64,000 nucleotides of DNA from Enterobacteria phage Aplg8: sequence record NC_054902.1; one strand, written 5' to 3'. Each line of letters starts with the position of its first letter. Position 1 is the stretch's first letter. Position numbers and translations under genes: made by a program. Positions 33,161 through 42,171 of the stretch are shown here, piece after piece. The notes below the pieces were generated by a model, which made no database searches, was not told the DNA's origin, and worked only from the letters and a program-made list of their open reading frames with translations.

Positions 33161-35218
33161 CTACATTTTGAACTTTTTAGACATTCCGTTGATGTTAACC
33201 AAAGAAGCTAAGATTTGAGAAACTTCGTTTTCCTCTTCTTTTGATTCTTCTACAAGGAATTGATTAAATCCAGCCATTAGACGAACTTCACCAGTTTCCA
33301 TTAGATGGTCGCCATCATATACTGATTCCTCTAATTGTTCAGAAGGAGGAACGATTGTACCTTCGATTAGATACTTGTTATAAGCAGTTTCTTTCATAAA
33401 GTAAGTACTTACTTTATTAATCTTCAGTAAAATTCCACGTGGTAGAATAACTTCAGCTTCTGATGGAAATCCTGATAAATGACCCGGAACGATAACTTTG
33501 ATTCGCTCAGCTCCTTTAATTACCATACCCACGCTAGTTTCAGCATCTTCATTAGCATATGTAGAATGACTACCCATATGCATCAAATCTTCTGCATCAA
33601 CGGAACCTTCTCCTTCACCAGAAAATACTGCTCCGGAATCATCTAAGGCCATATAATTTTTACCATACTCACCAAAGATATTTGGTTTAAGTGATGTCGA
33701 TACGAAGTTCTTGAAATAGAACATTTTATTTTCAATGTTATGACGCAAAGTTTTAAAAGTAACTTCTTGTCCACGGTAAAGTGTAGTTCCTGGAGGAAGA
33801 ACTGAACCTTTAGCGAATGCAGAATCAAGCGTCTCAATATGTTTAATAGCTCGTTCCATATATTCTTCACGGGTAGAATCTGGTTTACCCAAAAGGAACG
33901 AGTTCATTTCAACATATGAATCTGCGCAATAATCTTCAATTACGTCAGATTCAGCCTGAGTTAATCCTTTTGGAGTTACTTCGGTGCTTGCATATTCATA
34001 CGCCTGAGCAGCGGATTCATCAATTAATTTATAAATGCCATTCATGACAAATTGAATAATAGCTGTCTTTTCATCTGGCGTAGCTTTAGAACCTTTAACT
34101 AAATCATTGACAATTTTCTTAATAACATCAAAGCTATTAGAAATATTAATGTCAGCAAGATCGCTTAAAATTTTATCAGTTTTATAATCAAAAAATTCTT
34201 TATTCTTTAAATATTCTTGAGAACTTTGATATGTTATATCGCTCTGCAACTTGATAGATGGATCACGTAAACGTGCATGGGCTAATGCAATATGATTTCG
34301 GAAGCTTTCTAGTTCATAATCGTTAGATTTAAAACGAGAAGCACTTCTCATACCACCGATAGCTCCTTTGCTGAAGTTTGAACCAATCTGAATAACGCCA
34401 GAGTTCATTGGTCCTTCTGCTTTATATACCGGAACTTTAGATTCAAACTCTTGATATTTCTTAGCAGCGAAGCTATCACCCTGAAGTGAAGCATCAACAG
34501 TAGAATATTGAGCTTGTGCTGCTAATCGACGACTAATTTTAGTTTTCTGAATAACAGCTTGATCCGTACGCTTATCATTTTCTAAAGCAATAGAAGCAGC
34601 AACTGCGACAGCTTTAGGAACAGCATTACCTGTTTTAACGTCTACATAAACATCACCAACCTTTGATTCAACTTTTGTGAATAACTCAGTTGAAATAGGA
34701 GGTACACCTGGAATGTCTTCTAAATTGGCATTTTTACGGTAAACCATAATATATGCATATTTCTTATCATAGTCCCAGATTTCCTTTAAAAGAACATATC
34801 GACCTGCTCCTTTAGTACGTACTAAACGGTCAGCAATAACTTGCATTTGACGAGCTGCGCCATTTGTTTTACTCTTTAGTACGCGGAATAAGCATGCATC
34901 AATTTTATACTGTTTCATTGTTTGAAGAGCAGTATCAAAAACAGCATTAATGACGCCAATTGGATTTCCACCTAAGTTTTTAAGTTTAACTAATGATAAT
35001 TTCTCGTTGACACCTATCATTACGATATGCATCATTTTGTCGCCTGGCTTAACGTTTTTATTCGTATCACCGCCAGAGGTGTATGTACAAAATCTAAATC
35101 CAGGAAGCACGCTTTCTTCACCGGCTTGAATAGCAAAAATTTGAGGTATTTTATGCTTAGGATTTAAGTTAACAACCGGCGCCGAAGCGCCGTCAAATAA
35201 TTCTGTAATAAGTTCCAT
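33161..35218 (-). CDS. Alt-like ADP-ribosyltransferase paralog (T4 alt.-2/alt.-1 position)
   Basis: 685-aa ORF; N-terminus MELITELFDGASAPVVNLNPKHKIPQIF parallels Alt; C-terminal R-S-E motifs (LYRGQ, FVSTSL, SEAEVILPRG). Confidence 0.8.
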   Translation of the reverse strand: MELITELFDGASAPVVNLNPKHKIPQIFAIQAGEESVLPGFRFCTYTSGGDTNKNVKPGDKMMHIVMIGVNEKLSLVKLKNLGGNPIGVINAVFDTALQTMKQYKIDACLFRVLKSKTNGAARQMQVIADRLVRTKGAGRYVLLKEIWDYDKKYAYIMVYRKNANLEDIPGVPPISTELFTKVESKVGDVYVDVKTGNAVPKAVAVAASIALENDKRTDQAVIQKTKISRRLAAQAQYSTVDASLQGDSFAAKKYQEFESKVPVYKAEGPMNSGVIQIGSNFSKGAIGGMRSASRFKSNDYELESFRNHIALAHARLRDPSIKLQSDITYQSSQEYLKNKEFFDYKTDKILSDLADINISNSFDVIKKIVNDLVKGSKATPDEKTAIIQFVMNGIYKLIDESAAQAYEYASTEVTPKGLTQAESDVIEDYCADSYVEMNSFLLGKPDSTREEYMERAIKHIETLDSAFAKGSVLPPGTTLYRGQEVTFKTLRHNIENKMFYFKNFVSTSLKPNIFGEYGKNYMALDDSGAVFSGEGEGSVDAEDLMHMGSHSTYANEDAETSVGMVIKGAERIKVIVPGHLSGFPSEAEVILPRGILLKINKVSTYFMKETAYNKYLIEGTIVPPSEQLEESVYDGDHLMETGEVRLMAGFNQFLVEESKEEENEVSQILASLVNINGMSKKFKM

Positions 35219-35221
35219 GAT

Positions 35222-37315
35222 TTATCCTTGAACGAACTTGTAAGGCATGTTTGTAATATCTATGCAAGACGCAATAATTCCAAGAGATGATTCTACTTTC
35301 TGTTTAACATTTGATGAAACAAATGATGCAAAGTCAACTCTGTCTTCTATTTCAATATCACCTGTCATTGCAACTACTTCGCCAGTTTCCATTAAACGGT
35401 CACCGTCATAAATTACCGATTCGGTGAGTTCTTCGGTGGTCATAACTTCAGCTTGAATGAGTTTTGTATTATTAGACGTGGTTCCGTCATTATTAGAAGC
35501 ATCAGTTATTTTATTAACTTTGACCATCAATCCGCGCGGTAGAATAACTTCGGCTTCTGTTGCTATTCCGAGACTTCCTGGATATACAACATTAACTTTA
35601 TGAGCTCCATCAATTGCCCATCCTATTTGAACTTTAACGTATTCAGGATTTTCTTTATACGCTCTTATTTCGTTTGGATTAATAGTTATTCCTTCTTCAT
35701 TTTTATCAACTGTCAATTCATTACGAGCTTCTGGTTCTAAAAGACCAATACCAGCATGTGTAATTCCAAAACGTCCAAAAATGATAGGAGTTAAAGAAGT
35801 AGATACAAAATTTCTGAAATAGAACACTTTATTTTTAACTAGTGCTTCGTATATAGGAGCAGTCATACTTTGAGCACGATAAACTGTGATGCCTTCCGGT
35901 ATGCGGTCACCATTTTCAAAAGCTGAATCTAAGTTATTTATAGCAGATTCAATTTCTTTTTCACTCATTACATCATATCGTTCTGGATTGTAACGACCTA
36001 AAAGAAGATTATTGATGTCAGTATATCCTGAACCGCAATATTCTCTAATGCCACGCTTTTGTGATGGAGTATATTTAGAACCATCGCGGGCAATAGTAAT
36101 ATCAATCATTGGACCAGCACCAATTCCAGAAAAACTGTAAATCATTCGTTTGAGGAATTTAGTTTTTGCTGCGTTCCAGGAATTTTTAGTTATTTCTTCC
36201 CAGACTTCATCTGGTTGTCCTTTACGATTTTTATTATGATTAGCAAGCCATTTATCTTTATAATCTTCAAAGAATTGATTTACAGCTGCTGCGTATTTCT
36301 CTAAACATTTTATTGAAGTAGTTGGTTCATTTTTAATTGCATTAAAAATTACTTCTTTAATTTTTTCTGAAACTTCACCGACTTGACTCATTGGAAAGAA
36401 TTTATAATCATAGTGAAGTTCATCTGCCGTTCCTTTAGCAATAATTTTTGCTGCCTTTGTTTTAGAAGCTAATGAATTAATTCCAATTTTCATTTCTTCT
36501 GCTTCGGGAATTAAAGGTGCAGTAGCTGGTTTATTAAAATTAGCTGCTGTAGATTCATACTTCTGGAATAATTCACTTTCAAATCTAGAAGATTCCAATG
36601 ACTGACTTTGTGCAATTGCTCTACGGGAAATTTTAACTTTAACGATTACGGCTTGGTCAGAACGTTTATCATTTTCTTGTGCAATAGATGCAGCAATTGC
36701 CTCATTTTTGGTTACTTGAGCTCCAGTATCTTTATTGATATAAACATCACCGACTTTCGATTCAACTTTAGTAAAGAGCTCGGTACTAATTTCCGGAACT
36801 CCTGGAATGTCTTCTAGTGATACATTTTTACGATGTATAAGAATATATGCATACTTTTTATCGTAATCCCAGAGTTCCTTAAGAAGGACGTATCTGCCAC
36901 CTGAACGACTGCGGATGAGTCTATCAGCAATAAGTTGAATTTGTCGAGCTTGACCGGCGGTTTTAGACTTAAGAATACGGAGCATACAGGCATCAATTTT
37001 ATACTGACGCATCGTTTGCATCGCAACAGTAAAAACTGAATTGATGTAATTAATTGGGCTTGGACCGAGACCTTTTAATTTAGCAATTGAACCTTTAGCA
37101 GTTAATGTAAAAGGAACAATATGCATCATTTTATCGCCCATCTTTAAATCGCGATTAGTATCACCTCCAGATGTATAGGTACACAAACGAAAGCCTGGTT
37201 GTTCAATTGCGTCATCAACATGAACTGAAAAAATTTGCGGTATTTTCTTCTTTGGATTTAAGTTTGTAATCGGAAGAGTAGTATCTTCGTCAAATAATTC
37301 TGTAATGAGTTCCAT
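35222..37315 (-). CDS. alt: Alt ADP-ribosyltransferase (packaged, modifies host RNA polymerase)
   Basis: 697 aa from the second Met (MELITELFDEDTTLP...); R-S-E motifs (VYRAQ, FVSTSL, TEAEVILPRG); late promoter upstream. Confidence 0.88.
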   Translation of the reverse strand: MELITELFDEDTTLPITNLNPKKKIPQIFSVHVDDAIEQPGFRLCTYTSGGDTNRDLKMGDKMMHIVPFTLTAKGSIAKLKGLGPSPINYINSVFTVAMQTMRQYKIDACMLRILKSKTAGQARQIQLIADRLIRSRSGGRYVLLKELWDYDKKYAYILIHRKNVSLEDIPGVPEISTELFTKVESKVGDVYINKDTGAQVTKNEAIAASIAQENDKRSDQAVIVKVKISRRAIAQSQSLESSRFESELFQKYESTAANFNKPATAPLIPEAEEMKIGINSLASKTKAAKIIAKGTADELHYDYKFFPMSQVGEVSEKIKEVIFNAIKNEPTTSIKCLEKYAAAVNQFFEDYKDKWLANHNKNRKGQPDEVWEEITKNSWNAAKTKFLKRMIYSFSGIGAGPMIDITIARDGSKYTPSQKRGIREYCGSGYTDINNLLLGRYNPERYDVMSEKEIESAINNLDSAFENGDRIPEGITVYRAQSMTAPIYEALVKNKVFYFRNFVSTSLTPIIFGRFGITHAGIGLLEPEARNELTVDKNEEGITINPNEIRAYKENPEYVKVQIGWAIDGAHKVNVVYPGSLGIATEAEVILPRGLMVKVNKITDASNNDGTTSNNTKLIQAEVMTTEELTESVIYDGDRLMETGEVVAMTGDIEIEDRVDFASFVSSNVKQKVESSLGIIASCIDITNMPYKFVQG

Positions 37316-37338
37316 CATATCCTCTCTAGTGTTTATTC

Positions 37339-37369: not shown

Positions 37370-37556
37370 AATAATCTATTGGTAAGAGAGTACGATATAT
37401 TTCAAACTTTGGACCTTTTTCATAGGCATCAAATGTTTCTGTGAATTTATTATAAGCATATGCATCTATAAATTCAATCATAATTTGTGATACAGAAGTA
37501 GAAACATCTCCACCTTCTTTTTGAGCCACGACAATTGTTTCTAAGTAAGCTTTCAT
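37368..37556 (-). CDS. small hypothetical protein between gene 30 and alt
   Basis: 62-aa ORF; start overlaps the gene 30 stop. Confidence 0.55.
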   Translation of the reverse strand: MKAYLETIVVAQKEGGDVSTSVSQIMIEFIDAYAYNKFTETFDAYEKGPKFEIYRTLLPIDY

Positions 37557-39016
37557 AAACCAGTTACCTCATGAAAATCGCCAAATACATCTTCGAACGT
37601 ATTAGCTTTAGTTTTATCTTCACGTAAACGAATCGCAATCGGAAGAAATAATTTAACGTAATCAGTGCGGCCATCAGATTTTAACCAACCGTTGCATTCG
37701 CACTCTAGAATTTTTCCAATATAATAATTTTGGTTTTCCATAATGCGAGTACGGTCAAGTTCATGCGATTTTACACCGGCTTTATCTTTTAAGCCTGAAC
37801 CAGCATTTACTTTAATTTTTCCACACTCTGATTCAAGAATAAATCCACCTGCTTTAGTAGGGTCTTTACGGTGAGGATAAATTCCTACAATTTTTAAATC
37901 AACATCAATTACTTCTTTAAATTTATAGAGATTTTTTGAACGAGCATTTTCCCATAACCCATCAACGTTTTTGAGAATAATACCTTCAAGACCTTGATCA
38001 ATATACTTTTTGTAAATTACCTTAGCTTCATCTAGGTTATTTACTACCTGGTTTTCAATTAAAATTACTTTATCATAGCCTGATGTCATTTGTTCTAGTT
38101 TAGAAAAACGTACATCATATTTTAAACGAAACGCCGGAAGACCGTATATTTCTACCAACGGGACATAATCCCAAACCTGAAACTTCATGCATTGAGCTTC
38201 TTTTTCAGAAATGGTTCCTTTTAAGGATTTATTGGCGATTCCATTAGAAGTAGTACGAGATTCCGCTACTTCGGCGAATTCTTTAGCTTTACTAATTTCA
38301 GGATAAGCATCAAAAAGAAAATCTAGGCCTTCTGGTTCCTTTTTAACTTGCTCATGGTATACCAATTCGCCATCAATTAACACGCCTTCTGGATGAATCT
38401 GGCGGGCTTCAGCAGTCATTTTGATTAACTCTTCCTTAAGAAGATCTAATCCTAGATATTCATTACCAGCTCGCGATAAAAGACGAACATCATCTAATTC
38501 ATCACCTCTAACTTCAGCAAAACATCGAGCTCCATCTGCTTTTAACTGCGCAAAGGCTGGAAATTTGATATTCTTACTAATGCCCTTTTCATCATAAGAA
38601 CTTGCCAGCATTTGAGGTTGTTCAGGAATTAAACCTGGCCAAACTTTGTTTGCAATAGATACTGAAGCACCGCATTCAAGGTCTCGCATCATCACTCGAC
38701 GCAAAACTTCAACATCATCCTTTTTACCATCGGTGATATATCCAGTCAATTCCTCAATTGCAGCATTTCCGGTCAATTTCCGAGTAGCTAACGTGAATTC
38801 AATGAAGTCAAGCATATCGGTAATAGTCAGCATTCCAAAACTCTGGGTAGCAATACCAGGTTTAGGCCATTTCTTGATATAATACTGTAACCCACGAGAA
38901 TAAGTCAGACGATATACCCGTTTAAGCAATTCATTATCTTTATTCTTTTCAAGAATTGCTTGCTTCTGCTTAGTTGATCCAATAGATGCTATTTCATTCA
39001 GAATTTTAAGAATCAT
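37553..39016 (-). CDS. 30: ATP-dependent DNA ligase gp30
   Basis: 487-aa ORF; active-site KADGAR motif; sequence matches T4 DNA ligase as I recall it. Confidence 0.97.
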   Translation of the reverse strand: MILKILNEIASIGSTKQKQAILEKNKDNELLKRVYRLTYSRGLQYYIKKWPKPGIATQSFGMLTITDMLDFIEFTLATRKLTGNAAIEELTGYITDGKKDDVEVLRRVMMRDLECGASVSIANKVWPGLIPEQPQMLASSYDEKGISKNIKFPAFAQLKADGARCFAEVRGDELDDVRLLSRAGNEYLGLDLLKEELIKMTAEARQIHPEGVLIDGELVYHEQVKKEPEGLDFLFDAYPEISKAKEFAEVAESRTTSNGIANKSLKGTISEKEAQCMKFQVWDYVPLVEIYGLPAFRLKYDVRFSKLEQMTSGYDKVILIENQVVNNLDEAKVIYKKYIDQGLEGIILKNVDGLWENARSKNLYKFKEVIDVDLKIVGIYPHRKDPTKAGGFILESECGKIKVNAGSGLKDKAGVKSHELDRTRIMENQNYYIGKILECECNGWLKSDGRTDYVKLFLPIAIRLREDKTKANTFEDVFGDFHEVTGL

Positions 39017-39282
39017 TGCTCATCCTTCAAAGTTTGGTTTACAGCTCTATTATAAATCAATTCATCATTAAGCTCAGGCAAAGACTTATGATATGTAGTT
39101 CTAACTTTATTTCCTTGCATCCAGTGCTTGACGTAAATGAAACCTTGCTCTACACATTTTTTAAAAATTCGTTCGTCTTTTTGAGCTCGGAATTCTGGAT
39201 TGCATCTAAAAAATTGATTTACGTGACCGTAATCACGTGTAGTATTACCTTCATTTTCATAAATAGTGTGAACGACAAACAT
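39013..39282 (-). CDS. hypothetical protein (T4 30.1 position)
   Basis: 89-aa ORF; ATGA overlap with gene 30. Confidence 0.65.
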   Translation of the reverse strand: MFVVHTIYENEGNTTRDYGHVNQFFRCNPEFRAQKDERIFKKCVEQGFIYVKHWMQGNKVRTTYHKSLPELNDELIYNRAVNQTLKDEQ

Positions 39283-40118
39283 TAGAATGCTCCTTGGAAA
39301 ATATTATCACCACCAGTAGGTCTATTATACAAATACTCTATGCCACCAGGTTTAATATAGTTCCATGTCTGAAAAGGATGCGTCTGATATGGATGATATA
39401 GATTATAAGGATTAAATCCAGGAGTTCTCCAGGTAGTGTTCCAAGGAAAAGAATCGTTTTTAATCATCTTCTCAATTACATCTTTTATAACTTTTTCACT
39501 ATCAAAACTTTCTTTATTTTCCTTCGATGGAAAAAGCTTATTCTCTACATCATTCCATGTATAAACTCGCTGTGCAGTTTTTGGAATACTGTCACGCTCC
39601 CCTCGAGCCATCCAATAAACAGGAACATTTAATATTTCACTCGCGTGATCGCAATGGTGAGCGAGATCGTCAATATAACAAATTACGTTATATTTCTCTT
39701 TTGCCTTTTTGAACAACTCTTCTTTTGAAGAATCATGACCACACATCAATACTTCTGAGAAGGCACCAGGAAAAAGAGCATTCAAATTAAATTGACGATT
39801 CAGCAGAGCGTCAATAGAATCACCCAATGCTGTAACAGCTACAAAATTATAATCTTCTTTTAATTTGTTAATTACACACAGAGCATCTTTATATGGAGAC
39901 AAGTAACGAATAAAATCCGAACGATTGTATTTTTCAATTAGCTTAACGCCAAGTTCTTCATCACAGTTAAAGAGTTTACCTGGAGAAATAAATTTTTCGT
40001 CCTGAATCATTTTTAAAATATGTTCTAATGGAAGATTATATTTTTGGGCAAAATAAGGAAGACCTGATTGCCAGCTTAAACATACACCATCAATATCAGT
40101 TAAAATAGTAGGCTTCAT
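39282..40118 (-). CDS. HAD-superfamily hydrolase-like protein (T4 30.2 position)
   Basis: 278-aa ORF; N-terminal ILTDIDGV matches HAD motif I (DxDG). Confidence 0.7.
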   Translation of the reverse strand: MKPTILTDIDGVCLSWQSGLPYFAQKYNLPLEHILKMIQDEKFISPGKLFNCDEELGVKLIEKYNRSDFIRYLSPYKDALCVINKLKEDYNFVAVTALGDSIDALLNRQFNLNALFPGAFSEVLMCGHDSSKEELFKKAKEKYNVICYIDDLAHHCDHASEILNVPVYWMARGERDSIPKTAQRVYTWNDVENKLFPSKENKESFDSEKVIKDVIEKMIKNDSFPWNTTWRTPGFNPYNLYHPYQTHPFQTWNYIKPGGIEYLYNRPTGGDNIFQGAF

Positions 40119-40579
40119 AGAGAGTCTCTTAATAGGTTTAACACATCAATAAATTCAGCTTCGGTTAATATTGTATCATCTTTTGTTAGACCACTAGCCA
40201 TGCTGTGCTTCAAAACTTTTCCTTTCGAGGCTTGTAATGCATCACGAAAGCCCCTGTTTTGGAACGCTGCTTCAAAATATGCATTTGTGTATAATTCTTT
40301 CCACGCTGGAGAGTATCTTGAAAACGGAACTCCGAGCCAGAAGAGGGTCCCACGGTCCTGAGCTCTAGCATAAGCTCGTCCAGCTTGTTGGGCAGCAAGC
40401 CCGGATAACCCAAATATACGACGTTGCTGTTCAACATTTTTCACCTTACACCCTTGGAGGAATCCTTCGAGACCTCCAAATTGGATACCATCCATAACAA
40501 AAGGCCATTGGGCGAAATTACTTAATGCGCATGATGGCCATTTAAAATTGCTTCTTATCTCTAGCTCAGACATTTTCAA
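40115..40579 (-). CDS. NADAR-domain (YbiA-like) protein (T4 30.3 position)
   Basis: 154-aa ORF; pattern WPSCALSNF...GIQFGGLEGFLQ...W...Y typical of NADAR/DUF1768 proteins. Confidence 0.65.
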   Translation of the reverse strand: MKMSELEIRSNFKWPSCALSNFAQWPFVMDGIQFGGLEGFLQGCKVKNVEQQRRIFGLSGLAAQQAGRAYARAQDRGTLFWLGVPFSRYSPAWKELYTNAYFEAAFQNRGFRDALQASKGKVLKHSMASGLTKDDTILTEAEFIDVLNLLRDSL

Positions 40580-40772
40580 TACTTATAATTTCAACATCAG
40601 CCCAATGACCATAGCAAGGAAGACGAAATTCAACTGGCCAGTTAGGGTCCTTTTCTAATATAATAGACTCAACTTTCGGTTCTTCATGTTCATCAGTATA
40701 TGGATTTTTATCTGTTACTTTATATGTGACCTTAATGTACTGAATTCCAAAAATCTTATTAATTATATTCAT
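40566..40772 (-). CDS. hypothetical protein
   Basis: 68-aa ORF in a tightly overlapping minus-strand array. Confidence 0.55.
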   Translation of the reverse strand: MNIINKIFGIQYIKVTYKVTDKNPYTDEHEEPKVESIILEKDPNWPVEFRLPCYGHWADVEIISIENV

Positions 40773-40966
40773 ACTAATTCCTTTAATCCGTAAATAGGAG
40801 ATAATTCATCGCCCATACGAAGGTCTTCATTTCCATCTACCCAGGAAACAATATAAGCCTCTTTTATTTGAATACCACTCCATTTAAATGGAGGTAGAAC
40901 CTTAGAAATTAATCCAGGTATACCAACTCCCTTTAATTCAACAGTTTGACCTAAAAAGAATTTCAT
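40769..40966 (-). CDS. hypothetical protein
   Basis: 65-aa ORF; ATGA overlap with the downstream gene. Confidence 0.55.
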   Translation of the reverse strand: MKFFLGQTVELKGVGIPGLISKVLPPFKWSGIQIKEAYIVSWVDGNEDLRMGDELSPIYGLKELV

Positions 40967-41728: not shown

Positions 41729-42061
41729 TTATTTTACTACTTTCCAGTGCTGCATGTCAAGTTTACCAACTTTTTTCATCTTCTCAATTAAGCGTTCGGC
41801 ACGTTGGCGAGCTGTAACATAATACCATTCACCTAATTCATTTTGTTCAATTTTTCCAACGATTACTGTATTCAATTCATAAATCCAACCAGTAAAGAAA
41901 TTATGAACTTGAATTGTAAAGGTGAAATCTGTTCCCATACCTTCTGTTGTTTCTACTTCAATAATATTACCTTCAACTGCCATTAAGAACCACATAGTTT
42001 CATCATATTTACCATTGAAGCATTTAGTTTTAACTGCAGCGTTCAGATTAATCGTTTTCAT
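41729..42061 (-). CDS. hypothetical protein
   Basis: 110-aa ORF. Confidence 0.65.
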   Translation of the reverse strand: MKTINLNAAVKTKCFNGKYDETMWFLMAVEGNIIEVETTEGMGTDFTFTIQVHNFFTGWIYELNTVIVGKIEQNELGEWYYVTARQRAERLIEKMKKVGKLDMQHWKVVK

Positions 42062-42145: not shown

Positions 42146-42166
42146 AAAGGACTCCCGAAGGAGTCC
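42146..42166 (-). terminator. intrinsic terminator GGACTCC-TTCG-GGAGTCC + U-tract (minus strand)
   Basis: plus strand AAAAAAGGACTCCCGAAGGAGTCC just past the stop of the basic 58-aa ORF. Confidence 0.7.
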
Positions 42167-42171
42167 TCAAC

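Follow-up and report, generated by a model that had tools for sequence, protein, structure and literature searches.

The window analyzed here is a 64,000-nucleotide stretch of DNA from Enterobacteria phage Aplg8 (NC_054902.1), an RB14/RB51-like Tequatrovirus. Comparison of annotations indicates that the gene order in the window is that of T4 and RB14. The initial annotation had drawn attention to two ORFs that together span positions 39282 to 40579, and both are present on the minus strand in the ORF list of the window, where they correspond to the real genes 30.3 and 30.2 (Table 1). Neither is a chance reading frame, because gp30.3 and gp30.2 have tblastn matches in 1509 and 1438 phage records, respectively. 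Both protein families are listed in PHROGs with unknown function. Genes in this minus-strand run are joined by overlapping stop and start codons of the forms ATGA and TAATG. The two genes had been described as lying downstream of a pair of ADP-ribosyltransferase genes, but the direction of transcription reverses this relationship, such that both lie on the upstream side of ligase and alt. The Alt pair shares 41% identity, and each member matches Pfam ADPrib_exo_Tox.

Table 1. Genes, codons and protein regions at the 30.4–alt locus (positions in the window).
Feature	Position	Strand	Remarks
Gene 30.4	40566..40772	-	68 aa; no Pfam match; stop codon overlaps the adfN ATG (ATGTCTGA)
Two extra codons, TTG AAA, from the mechanical ORF call	40574..40579	-	Probably untranslated as part of AdfN
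Gene 30.3 = adfN	40115..40573	-	152 aa; predicted NADAR-family DNA ADP-ribosylglycohydrolase of the orphan-antitoxin type; stop codon 40115-40117
Codon of catalytic Glu36, AdfN	40466..40468	-	Invariant; aligns with the YbiA motif Glu; codon checked
Codon of catalytic Lys43, AdfN	40445..40447	-	Invariant; codon checked
Codon of His123, AdfN	40205..40207	-	Invariant; codon checked
Last 15 adfN codons, C-terminal helix	40118..40162	-	Helix at residues 138-151 in the AF2 model
Gene 30.2, residues 1-200	39519..40118	-	Predicted HAD-fold phosphatase core with helical C1 cap (about residues 14-88)
Gene 30.2, residues 201-278 and stop codon	39282..39518	-	Predicted short helix followed by a disordered tail
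Gene 30.1 (DUF3045)	39013..39282	-	89 aa; Pfam PF11243, 5.6e-63; 30.2 stop and 30.1 start overlap (TAATG)
Gene 30, ATP-dependent DNA ligase	37553..39016	-	Pfam DNA_ligase_A_M, 2.4e-32; RB14 and T4 annotation
alt, protein ADP-ribosyltransferase	35222..37318	-	Pfam ADPrib_exo_Tox, 9.9e-38
Second Alt paralogue (alt.-2 in RB14)	33161..35218	-	Pfam ADPrib_exo_Tox, 7.5e-20; RB14 annotation

The plus-strand ORFs in this region encode 42 to 61 amino acids, lie inside the minus-strand genes and were taken as chance occurrences. A promoter scan identified a strong sigma-70-like site upstream of gene 30.7 (41760-41731, minus strand), and a terminator scan identified a terminator-like hairpin at 42168-42147. 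Sites of the promoter and terminator types are in total no more frequent than in shuffled sequence, and therefore no conclusion on the timing of expression is drawn from these scans.

The start of gene 30.3 is more likely the ATG at positions 40571-40573, which yields a protein of 152 amino acids, than the TTG that would yield 154. This choice is favored because the gene is annotated in this manner in RB14 and T4, and because the published numbering of E36 and K43 fits the ATG start only. The protein can be aligned without gaps, through its last residue, with T4 gp30.3, and the two share 147 of 152 residues (97%). It matches the Pfam family Phage_30_3 (PF08010) with an E value of 6.1e-69 and a score of 230.6 bits (cut-off 36), and the conserved core begins at approximately residue 6 of 152.

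A search of PDB sequences with gp30.3 as a single sequence gave a chance match only, and profiles and structure models were needed to place the protein. When the gp30.3 family profile is used instead, the sole match among PDB sequences is YbiA (1.3e-3), wherein the Glu and Lys residues are aligned. Moreover, Pfam NADAR (PF08719) is also matched by 15 of 35 gp30.3 homologues, with a best E value of 1.5e-7. The AlphaFold (AF2) model has a pLDDT of 94.6 and includes short strand pairs that flank a helical core. A Foldseek search of the PDB with this model places three NADAR proteins at the top, namely YbiA (2b3w, 6e-5), a Phytophthora protein (8bau) and a DarG1 protein from Geobacter (8bat), which are the sole matches with a probability of at least 0.95. 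No non-NADAR match in that search has a probability greater than 0.02.

Three residues, E36, K43 and H123, are invariant among the 35 homologues. The first two reside in the string LEGFLQGCK, which fits the NADAR motif E-x-(F/Y)-x-Q-x(2)-K and whose two key codons were checked, whereas the third is located within LKHSM in the last strand. A His at this location is the published mark of gp30.3-type NADARs, in place of the Glu of YbiA or the Asp of BC4488. The hallmarks of DarG1, which are an N-terminal extension and the last-strand Asp, are absent from the window protein in the 35-homologue alignment. Likewise, no DarT1 toxin gene adjoins adfN in the window, where the neighbors are 30.4 and 30.2 and the nearest ADP-ribosyltransferase genes are of the Alt type and about 3 kb distant. 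The predicted C-terminal helix (residues 138-151) is intact and carries no frameshift of the RB69 type. Together, the Pfam and profile matches, the AF2 model with its Foldseek neighbors, and the invariant residues support the assignment of the 152-residue protein as a NADAR enzyme, and they bear out the original suggestion of a NADAR/YbiA-like ORF with its length corrected from 154 amino acids.

The T4 orthologue of this protein, named AdfN, has been studied experimentally. It removes guanine-linked ADP-ribose from DNA in vitro and is inactive on thymidine-ADP-ribose. Deletion and complementation experiments established that T4 adfN is necessary and sufficient for resistance to DarTG1, and the protein is impaired by the E36A and K43A mutations or by truncation of its C-terminus. 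In phage RB69, the C-terminal part of AdfN has been lost by a frameshift and the phage is sensitive to DarTG1, yet it is fully rescued when AdfN alone is supplied in trans. In a published transposon screen of T4 on DarTG1, insertions in 30.3 were lost (log2FC -7.25). In uninfected cells, the T4 protein neither relieves DarT1 toxicity nor substitutes for DarG1.

In the mechanism shown for the T4 protein, the DarT1 toxin of an infected DarTG1 host ADP-ribosylates guanines of the phage DNA and thereby blocks replication. AdfN then hydrolyzes the N-glycosidic bond of guanine-ADP-ribose by using Glu36, Lys43 and His123, and the resulting release of free ADP-ribose and restoration of the base permit replication to continue. 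Because the window protein is 97% identical to T4 AdfN and retains both the catalytic residues and the C-terminal helix, we infer that it acts against DarTG1 as T4 AdfN does. Thus, the proposal that the NADAR gene serves as an anti-defense function against DarTG systems is right for the 97%-identical T4 orthologue, as judged by in vitro activity, gene deletion and the transposon screen. The idea is correct, but it was already published between 2023 and 2025: the phage NADAR clade was recognized in 2023, the in vitro activity of AdfN was reported in 2024, and its name dates from 2024-2025. The anti-DarTG inference drawn from raw sequence was therefore sound, and it adds nothing new because experiments with T4 had shown the same.

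The AdfN authors infer that a further factor supplied by T-even phages is required for full AdfN activity, with DNA modification having been excluded by the use of T4-GT7. The gene adjoining adfN on its upstream side, 30.4, occurs in 718 phage records that are without exception T-even in type, a number close to the 727 records that carry AdfN at 80% identity or greater. It is missing beside the more distant gp30.3 homologues examined. In addition, the transposon screen of T4 on DarTG1 yielded a single significant gene besides 30.3, and this was 30.4 (log2FC -1.79, padj 0.014). The gp30.4 protein is consequently a candidate for the T-even-specific helper of AdfN, albeit an unlikely one. The depletion of 30.4 insertions is probably a polar effect on adfN. 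No Shine-Dalgarno sequence precedes the adfN ATG, which is placed inside the end of 30.4, and therefore insertions in 30.4 would be expected to lower AdfN translation. The restriction of full AdfN activity to T-even infection indicates that an extra factor is at work, and this question extends beyond the present window.

The protein product of gene 30.2 (39282-40118) begins with MKPTILTDIDGV, which includes the DxDGV form of HAD motif I. Both aspartates of this motif, D8 and D10, are invariant in alignments of 34 and of 124 homologues. Elsewhere in the HAD motifs, K132 is invariant, T96 and D150/D151 reach at least 90% conservation, and the corresponding codons were checked. The structure model includes a confident HAD core fold, and some 75 residues between motifs I and II form a helical C1 cap (helices spanning residues 16-86). 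Past residue 200, the chain continues as one short helix and then a disordered tail that is rich in Trp, Pro and Tyr, has pLDDT values below 50 at residues 228-231, 239-261 and 266-278, and ends with GGIEYLYNRPT. Many homologues lack this tail or have a different one, while its end motif recurs in a subset, and such a variable, disordered region may tether the protein to a partner. The initial annotation had called the 278-residue ORF a HAD-like hydrolase on the basis of motif I, and the conserved motifs and confident model now firmly predict a HAD phosphatase with a helical C1 cap. HAD phosphatases differ from dehalogenases in that a second Asp, two residues past the nucleophile, acts as the general acid/base. 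The gp30.2 protein would be a Mg2+-dependent HAD phosphomonoesterase, with Asp8 as the putative nucleophile and Asp10 as the putative general acid/base.

Assignment of gp30.2 to a family within this superfamily is less direct. The window protein alone has no Pfam or NCBIfam match that reaches threshold, the best being HAD_PNKP (E 0.17), and it has no match to NT5C at E <=1. Its best PDB sequence matches are deoxyribonucleotidases. Among 124 relatives, 37 match Pfam NT5C (PF06941) at E <=1e-3, and two relatives, which match the gp30.2 profile at 1e-20 to 1e-24, exceed the NT5C cut-off (30.1 and 36.8 bits versus 24.8). Furthermore, the profile built from the 124 sequences gives a full-length match to a Staphylococcus epidermidis protein (3bwv) with an E value of 7.7e-7. 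An invariant Trp of gp30.2, W16, aligns with a Phe of cdN located eight residues past the nucleophile, and crystal structures of cdN and mdN reveal that this Phe stacks on the nucleobase. We conclude that the most fitting description of gp30.2 is a divergent sister branch of NT5C, to which it appears to be linked transitively through its relatives. Its substrate may be a (deoxy)nucleoside monophosphate or another small phosphoester of that kind, a guess to which we give even odds.

Other sources provide little additional guidance on the role of gp30.2. No extra Pfam domain is present in five longer proteins of the wider gp30.2 family (347-660 aa) that were inspected for fusion partners. The literature searched holds no functional data on gp30.2 or on a deoxyribonucleotidase of T4-like phages, and no phenotype for 30.2 appears in any condition of the published genetics, which therefore lend no genetic support to a nucleotidase role. 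The protein may be a nucleotidase that counters a defense outside those screened, although we regard this as a weaker reading than that of gp30.4 as an AdfN helper. Since a nucleotidase-like phosphatase of this kind is encoded by more than 1400 phage genomes, its purpose is a question that reaches beyond this window.

Another function that might be considered for gp30.2 is that of a nucleic-acid 3'-phosphatase, which would make ligatable 3'-OH ends for the adjoining ligase in the manner of the PNKP HAD domain. In three genera, the 30.2 gene is next to the ligase gene or overlaps it, a gp30.2 homologue is located among replication genes in Pseudomonas phage Paride, and the HAD_PNKP match noted above, which covers motifs III-IV, is the sole Pfam match of the window protein. 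However, that match scores 12.4 bits, far under the cut-off of 27.6, and both the sequence neighbors and the fold neighbors of gp30.2 are small-molecule nucleotidases. The helical C1 cap in the model also argues against this function, as HAD enzymes with macromolecular substrates typically lack a cap. Finally, the gene run in RB14 continues, some 6 kb on, to pseT, which codes for a polynucleotide kinase with 3'-phosphatase activity. We consider a role in end healing to be distinctly improbable, and continue to favor a small-molecule, NT5C-like phosphatase.

The initial annotation had also grouped the NADAR, HAD, ligase and Alt proteins into a single toolkit for ADP-ribosylation and nucleic-acid repair. 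In such a scheme, AdfN would remove ADP-ribose, gp30.2 would process a phosphorylated product or damaged end, ligase would seal the strand, and the Alt enzymes would be included as partners. Several observations are consistent with this proposal: overlaps of the ATGA and TAATG types couple the translation of the genes within a single run, Tevenvirinae, Slopekvirus and Hadassahvirus all have the order 30.3-30.2-ligase, the expression of NADARs together with ADP-ribosyltransferases in T4-like phages was remarked upon in 2022, and a helper for AdfN was postulated by its discoverers. Nevertheless, the products of NADAR hydrolysis are free ADP-ribose and an undamaged base, and therefore no nick or phosphate end would await repair. 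Alt enzymes act on host proteins, which are a different class of substrate from the guanine-ADP-ribose cleaved by NADARs.

Genetic data and gene distribution weigh further against this scheme. In the T4 screen on DarTG1, 30.2 was unaffected (log2FC -0.12, 71 sites, p 0.61), compared with the -7.25 observed for 30.3, and both 30.1 and alt were neutral (-0.01 each). The complete rescue of RB69 required AdfN only. The genes are unlinked in 44RR2.8t, PC-Liy1, RSP15 and Paride. Outside T4-type synteny we found no case of adjacent 30.3 and 30.2 genes, which are apart in Biquartavirus, Schizotequatrovirus, Ralstonia phage RSP15 and Pseudomonas phage Paride. A coordinated toolkit is thus already largely refuted for DarTG1 and, taken as a whole, is very unlikely, although a link between 30.3, 30.2 and ligase may exist under conditions beyond those screened. 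Least credible of all is the possibility that AdfN acts mainly on soluble, ADP-ribose-derived signals of host immunity rather than on DNA adducts, which was put forward from context for phage NADARs generally before experiments were conducted and would accord with the lack of rescue of DarT1 toxicity in uninfected cells, but which is already contradicted as the main role because T4 AdfN takes ADP-ribose off DNA directly in vitro, T4 lacking adfN is specifically sensitive to DarTG1, and catalytic mutants of AdfN are impaired.

Our preferred interpretation, to which we assign a probability of roughly 80%, is that the two genes of this region belong to the T4 early-region cluster 30.9-30 and are independent of each other, with 30.3 coding for AdfN and 30.2 coding for a divergent NT5C-like HAD phosphatase. 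The two genes are not mutually required for counter-defense against DarTG1, and they lie near the ligase and Alt genes through inherited T4-type synteny.

Among known systems, the closest counterpart of the window NADAR is T4 AdfN itself, which has equal length, the same neighboring genes, the residues E36, K43 and H123, and the C-terminal helix. The two differ by five conservative substitutions (window to T4: K11R, A67S, F104I, R107K and M125I). More distant are the DarG1-type NADARs of the BC4488 family, such as those of Geobacter lovleyi (8bat) and E. coli C7, which have the fold predicted for the window protein and the same catalytic Glu and Lys residues, and whose removal of ADP-ribose from guanine the window protein would share by analogy with T4. 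Unlike these antitoxins, the window AdfN is an orphan that has no DarT1 gene and no N-terminal extension, and it carries His rather than Asp in the last strand. The founding protein of the NADAR/YbiA fold, E. coli YbiA (2b3w), is both the best structural match (Foldseek 6e-5, TM 0.67) and the sole PDB sequence match of the gp30.3 profile. However, it is only 18% identical, has Glu at the position of the phage-clade His, and is a housekeeping enzyme tied to riboflavin metabolism that gives no protection from DarT1 in vivo.

For gp30.2, the T4 PseT HAD domain is similar with regard to superfamily, catalytic motifs and location in the T4 early region, but the HAD_PNKP match (E 0.17) is insignificant, and the large cap predicted for gp30.2 points to small substrates. 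The NT5C nucleotidases, including mammalian cdN and mdN and the S. epidermidis protein 3bwv, provide both the best sequence matches and the best Foldseek matches, and they share with gp30.2 the HAD core, the helical C1 cap, the DxDGV motif and an aromatic residue at nucleophile+8 (W16 versus the Phe of cdN). They differ from gp30.2 in that identity is 15-20% and the window protein falls under the Pfam NT5C threshold. The phage protein also carries about 80 additional residues as a disordered tail, together with a distinct set of conserved residues, which consists of S18, Y64, S67, R108 and N111.

The product of gene 30.3 is a NADAR protein, specifically AdfN, the name given by the LeRoux laboratory. 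The protein matches the Pfam family Phage_30_3 (6.1e-69) and aligns without gaps to T4 gp30.3, with 147 of 152 residues identical. E36, K43, and H123 are invariant in an alignment of 35 homologues extending down to 35% identity, and 15 of these sequences also match Pfam NADAR. Among solved structures, the profile of this family detects E. coli YbiA alone (E 1.3e-3), with the Glu and Lys residues aligned. AlphaFold predicts the protein with high confidence (pLDDT 94.6), and in Foldseek this model has meaningful matches only to YbiA, an ADP-ribose-bound NADAR from Phytophthora, and the NADAR of Geobacter lovleyi DarG1. A 2023 structural paper pointed out that the Glu or Asp of other NADARs is replaced by His in those of phages.

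The initial annotation proposed that this gene counters DarTG systems, which is correct but already known, having been proven for the T4 orthologue. A 2024 study demonstrated that T4 gp30.3 strips ADP-ribose from DNA guanine and not from thymidine. The LeRoux laboratory found AdfN to be necessary and sufficient for the resistance of T-even phages to the bacterial defence DarTG1, and impaired by E36A, K43A, or C-terminal truncation. A frameshift that deletes the last 15 residues of AdfN renders phage RB69 sensitive to DarTG1. In a genome-wide T4 transposon screen on a DarTG1 host, insertions in 30.3 were lost (log2FC -7.25). Since the allele in the window retains all three catalytic residues and the complete C-terminal helix, its AdfN should be functional. 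The methods of a 2024 Toxins paper (PMC11125620) give the T4 gp30.3 construct as 'residues 1-208', and T4 gp30.3 has 152 aa; the larger figure may be a tag-inclusive count or refer to another phage protein.

Both ORFs had been delimited correctly (39282-40579), with 30.3 read as 154 aa from a TTG codon. However, translation almost certainly begins at an ATG located two codons further in, giving 152 aa, because RB14 and T4 are annotated in this way and the published residue numbering requires it. The two genes had also been placed downstream of the ADP-ribosyltransferases, whereas by direction of transcription it is the ligase and alt genes that are downstream of them. All genes surrounding 30.3 and 30.2 follow the classical T4 order, and the junctions overlap: by 8 nt between 30.4 and 30.3 (ATGTCTGA), by ATGA between 30.3 and 30.2, and by TAATG between 30.2 and 30.1. 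These genes are thus read as a single translationally coupled run.

Features of the 30.x to alt region, listed in the order of transcription
Feature	Coordinates	Strand	Remark
30.9 to 30.4		-	precede 30.3
Hairpin	42147-42168	-	strong, terminator-like; between 30.9 and 30.8
Promoter-like site	41731-41760	-	TTGACA-18-TAAAAT; at 30.8 end, just upstream of 30.7
30.4	40566-40772	-	68 aa; just upstream of adfN
30.3 (adfN)	40115-40573	-	
30.3'	40210-40437	-	predicted 75-aa ORF, other frame within adfN
30.2	39282-40118	-	HAD-like
30.2 C-terminal tail	39282-39518	-	~80 residues
30.1	39013-39282	-	
30	37553-39016	-	DNA ligase
alt.1		-	between gene 30 and alt
alt	35222-37318	-	
Second Alt paralogue	33161-35218	-	

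The near-consensus sigma-70-type promoter and the hairpin come from a scan whose total site count was not above that of shuffled sequence, and the two could delimit the transcription unit to which adfN and 30.2 belong.

The ORF nested in adfN, annotated as 30.3' in T4, is intact in the window, RB14, T4T, and Dhakavirus IME281, and a stop interrupts the copy in Gaprivervirus SP18. Among the homologues of gp30.3 (P0104-P0118, P0145, and P0192), many entries are truncated (83-154 aa), and several also match a second, different Pfam family (PF11097, PF06919, PF06019, or PF26911). These entries suggest that adfN is often disrupted or mis-called in T-even phages, as in RB69. The IME281 RefSeq record (NC_055740.1) has an intact but unannotated adfN homologue (1501-1956 of locus L009), and its 30.x labels are off by one gene, such that the HAD gene is called gp30.3.

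The 278-aa product of gene 30.2 was rightly recognized as a HAD fold, as the conserved motifs and the AlphaFold model attest. By itself, the window protein has no significant family match (best HAD_PNKP, E 0.17), but it has about 1400 phage homologues. The four HAD motifs (D8 and D10, T96, K132, and D150/D151) are conserved in alignments of 34 and 124 sequences, as are W16, R108, and N111. A second Asp in motif I is a sign of a phosphatase rather than a dehalogenase. Residues 1-190 are modeled confidently and form a Rossmann-like core into which a helical cap is inserted behind motif I; the final ~50 residues are disordered. Mouse cytosolic 5'(3')-deoxyribonucleotidase is both the best Foldseek match (3e-8) and the best PDB sequence match of the family profile. 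An exhaustive profile search gave 1537 cluster representatives at an E of 1e-3 or better; in a subset of 124, 37 match Pfam NT5C, some above its curated cut-off, and no other family is matched as often. A profile of these 124 sequences also matches the NT5C-like Staphylococcus protein 3bwv end to end (7.7e-7). Given these matches, we place gp30.2 as a probable divergent sister of the NT5C nucleotidases, a putative nucleotidase-type HAD phosphatase. The large cap in the model argues for a small substrate; none is reported in the literature searched. The tail is predicted to be disordered, is rich in Trp, Pro, and Tyr, and varies greatly among homologues. The tails group into a small number of classes marked by short motifs conserved at their ends (GTGIEYLNRQPT, DLRAYY, and Y-LLNKV-AND), which could serve for docking.

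The proposal that the NADAR, HAD, ligase, and Alt proteins form a joint ADP-ribosylation and repair toolkit proved wrong, and the evidence says that they are not a functional unit for DarTG1. The T4 screen yielded only two significant genes and was neutral for 30.2 (71 sites, log2FC -0.12, p 0.61), 30.1 (log2FC -0.01), alt (-0.01), and alt.-1 to alt.-3. Genes 30.1-30.9 are all dispensable on E. coli K-12, and RB69 is rescued by AdfN alone in trans. NADAR hydrolysis restores the base, and thus nothing is left for a phosphatase or ligase to mend. Nor is the linkage widely kept: 30.3 lies within a tRNA cluster in Aeromonas phage 44RR2.8t, next to genes for recombination nucleases in Vibrio phage PC-Liy1, and alone in Ralstonia phage RSP15, and the HAD gene of Pseudomonas phage Paride adjoins the clamp loader with no NADAR nearby. 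In Tevenvirinae, Slopekvirus, and Hadassahvirus, the 30.3, 30.2, and ligase genes remain near one another, as expected from inherited synteny.

Besides 30.3, the one significant gene of the screen was 30.4 (log2FC -1.79, padj 0.014), whose product has no Pfam match. The AdfN authors observed full AdfN activity only during T-even infection; having ruled out DNA modification as an explanation, they inferred that a different factor from the phage contributes. gp30.4 is confined to T-even-type phages and occurs in 718 records, versus 727 that carry an AdfN with at least 80% identity. We nevertheless consider it unlikely that gp30.4 is an AdfN helper. A simpler reading is polarity, wherein insertions in 30.4 lower AdfN synthesis. 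The adfN ATG sits within the end of 30.4 and lacks a Shine-Dalgarno sequence, and therefore halting translation of 30.4 should have this effect.

The window belongs to the genome of a T4-type phage (Tequatrovirus), and the region 39000-40800 has 97% DNA identity to phages KAW1E185, RB14, and RB51, with 710 phage records matched. Alt and its paralogue are encoded in tandem, are 41% identical, and both match the ADP-ribosyltransferase exoenzyme family. T4 has one alt gene followed by small ORFs, whereas the window carries two Alt-type paralogues.
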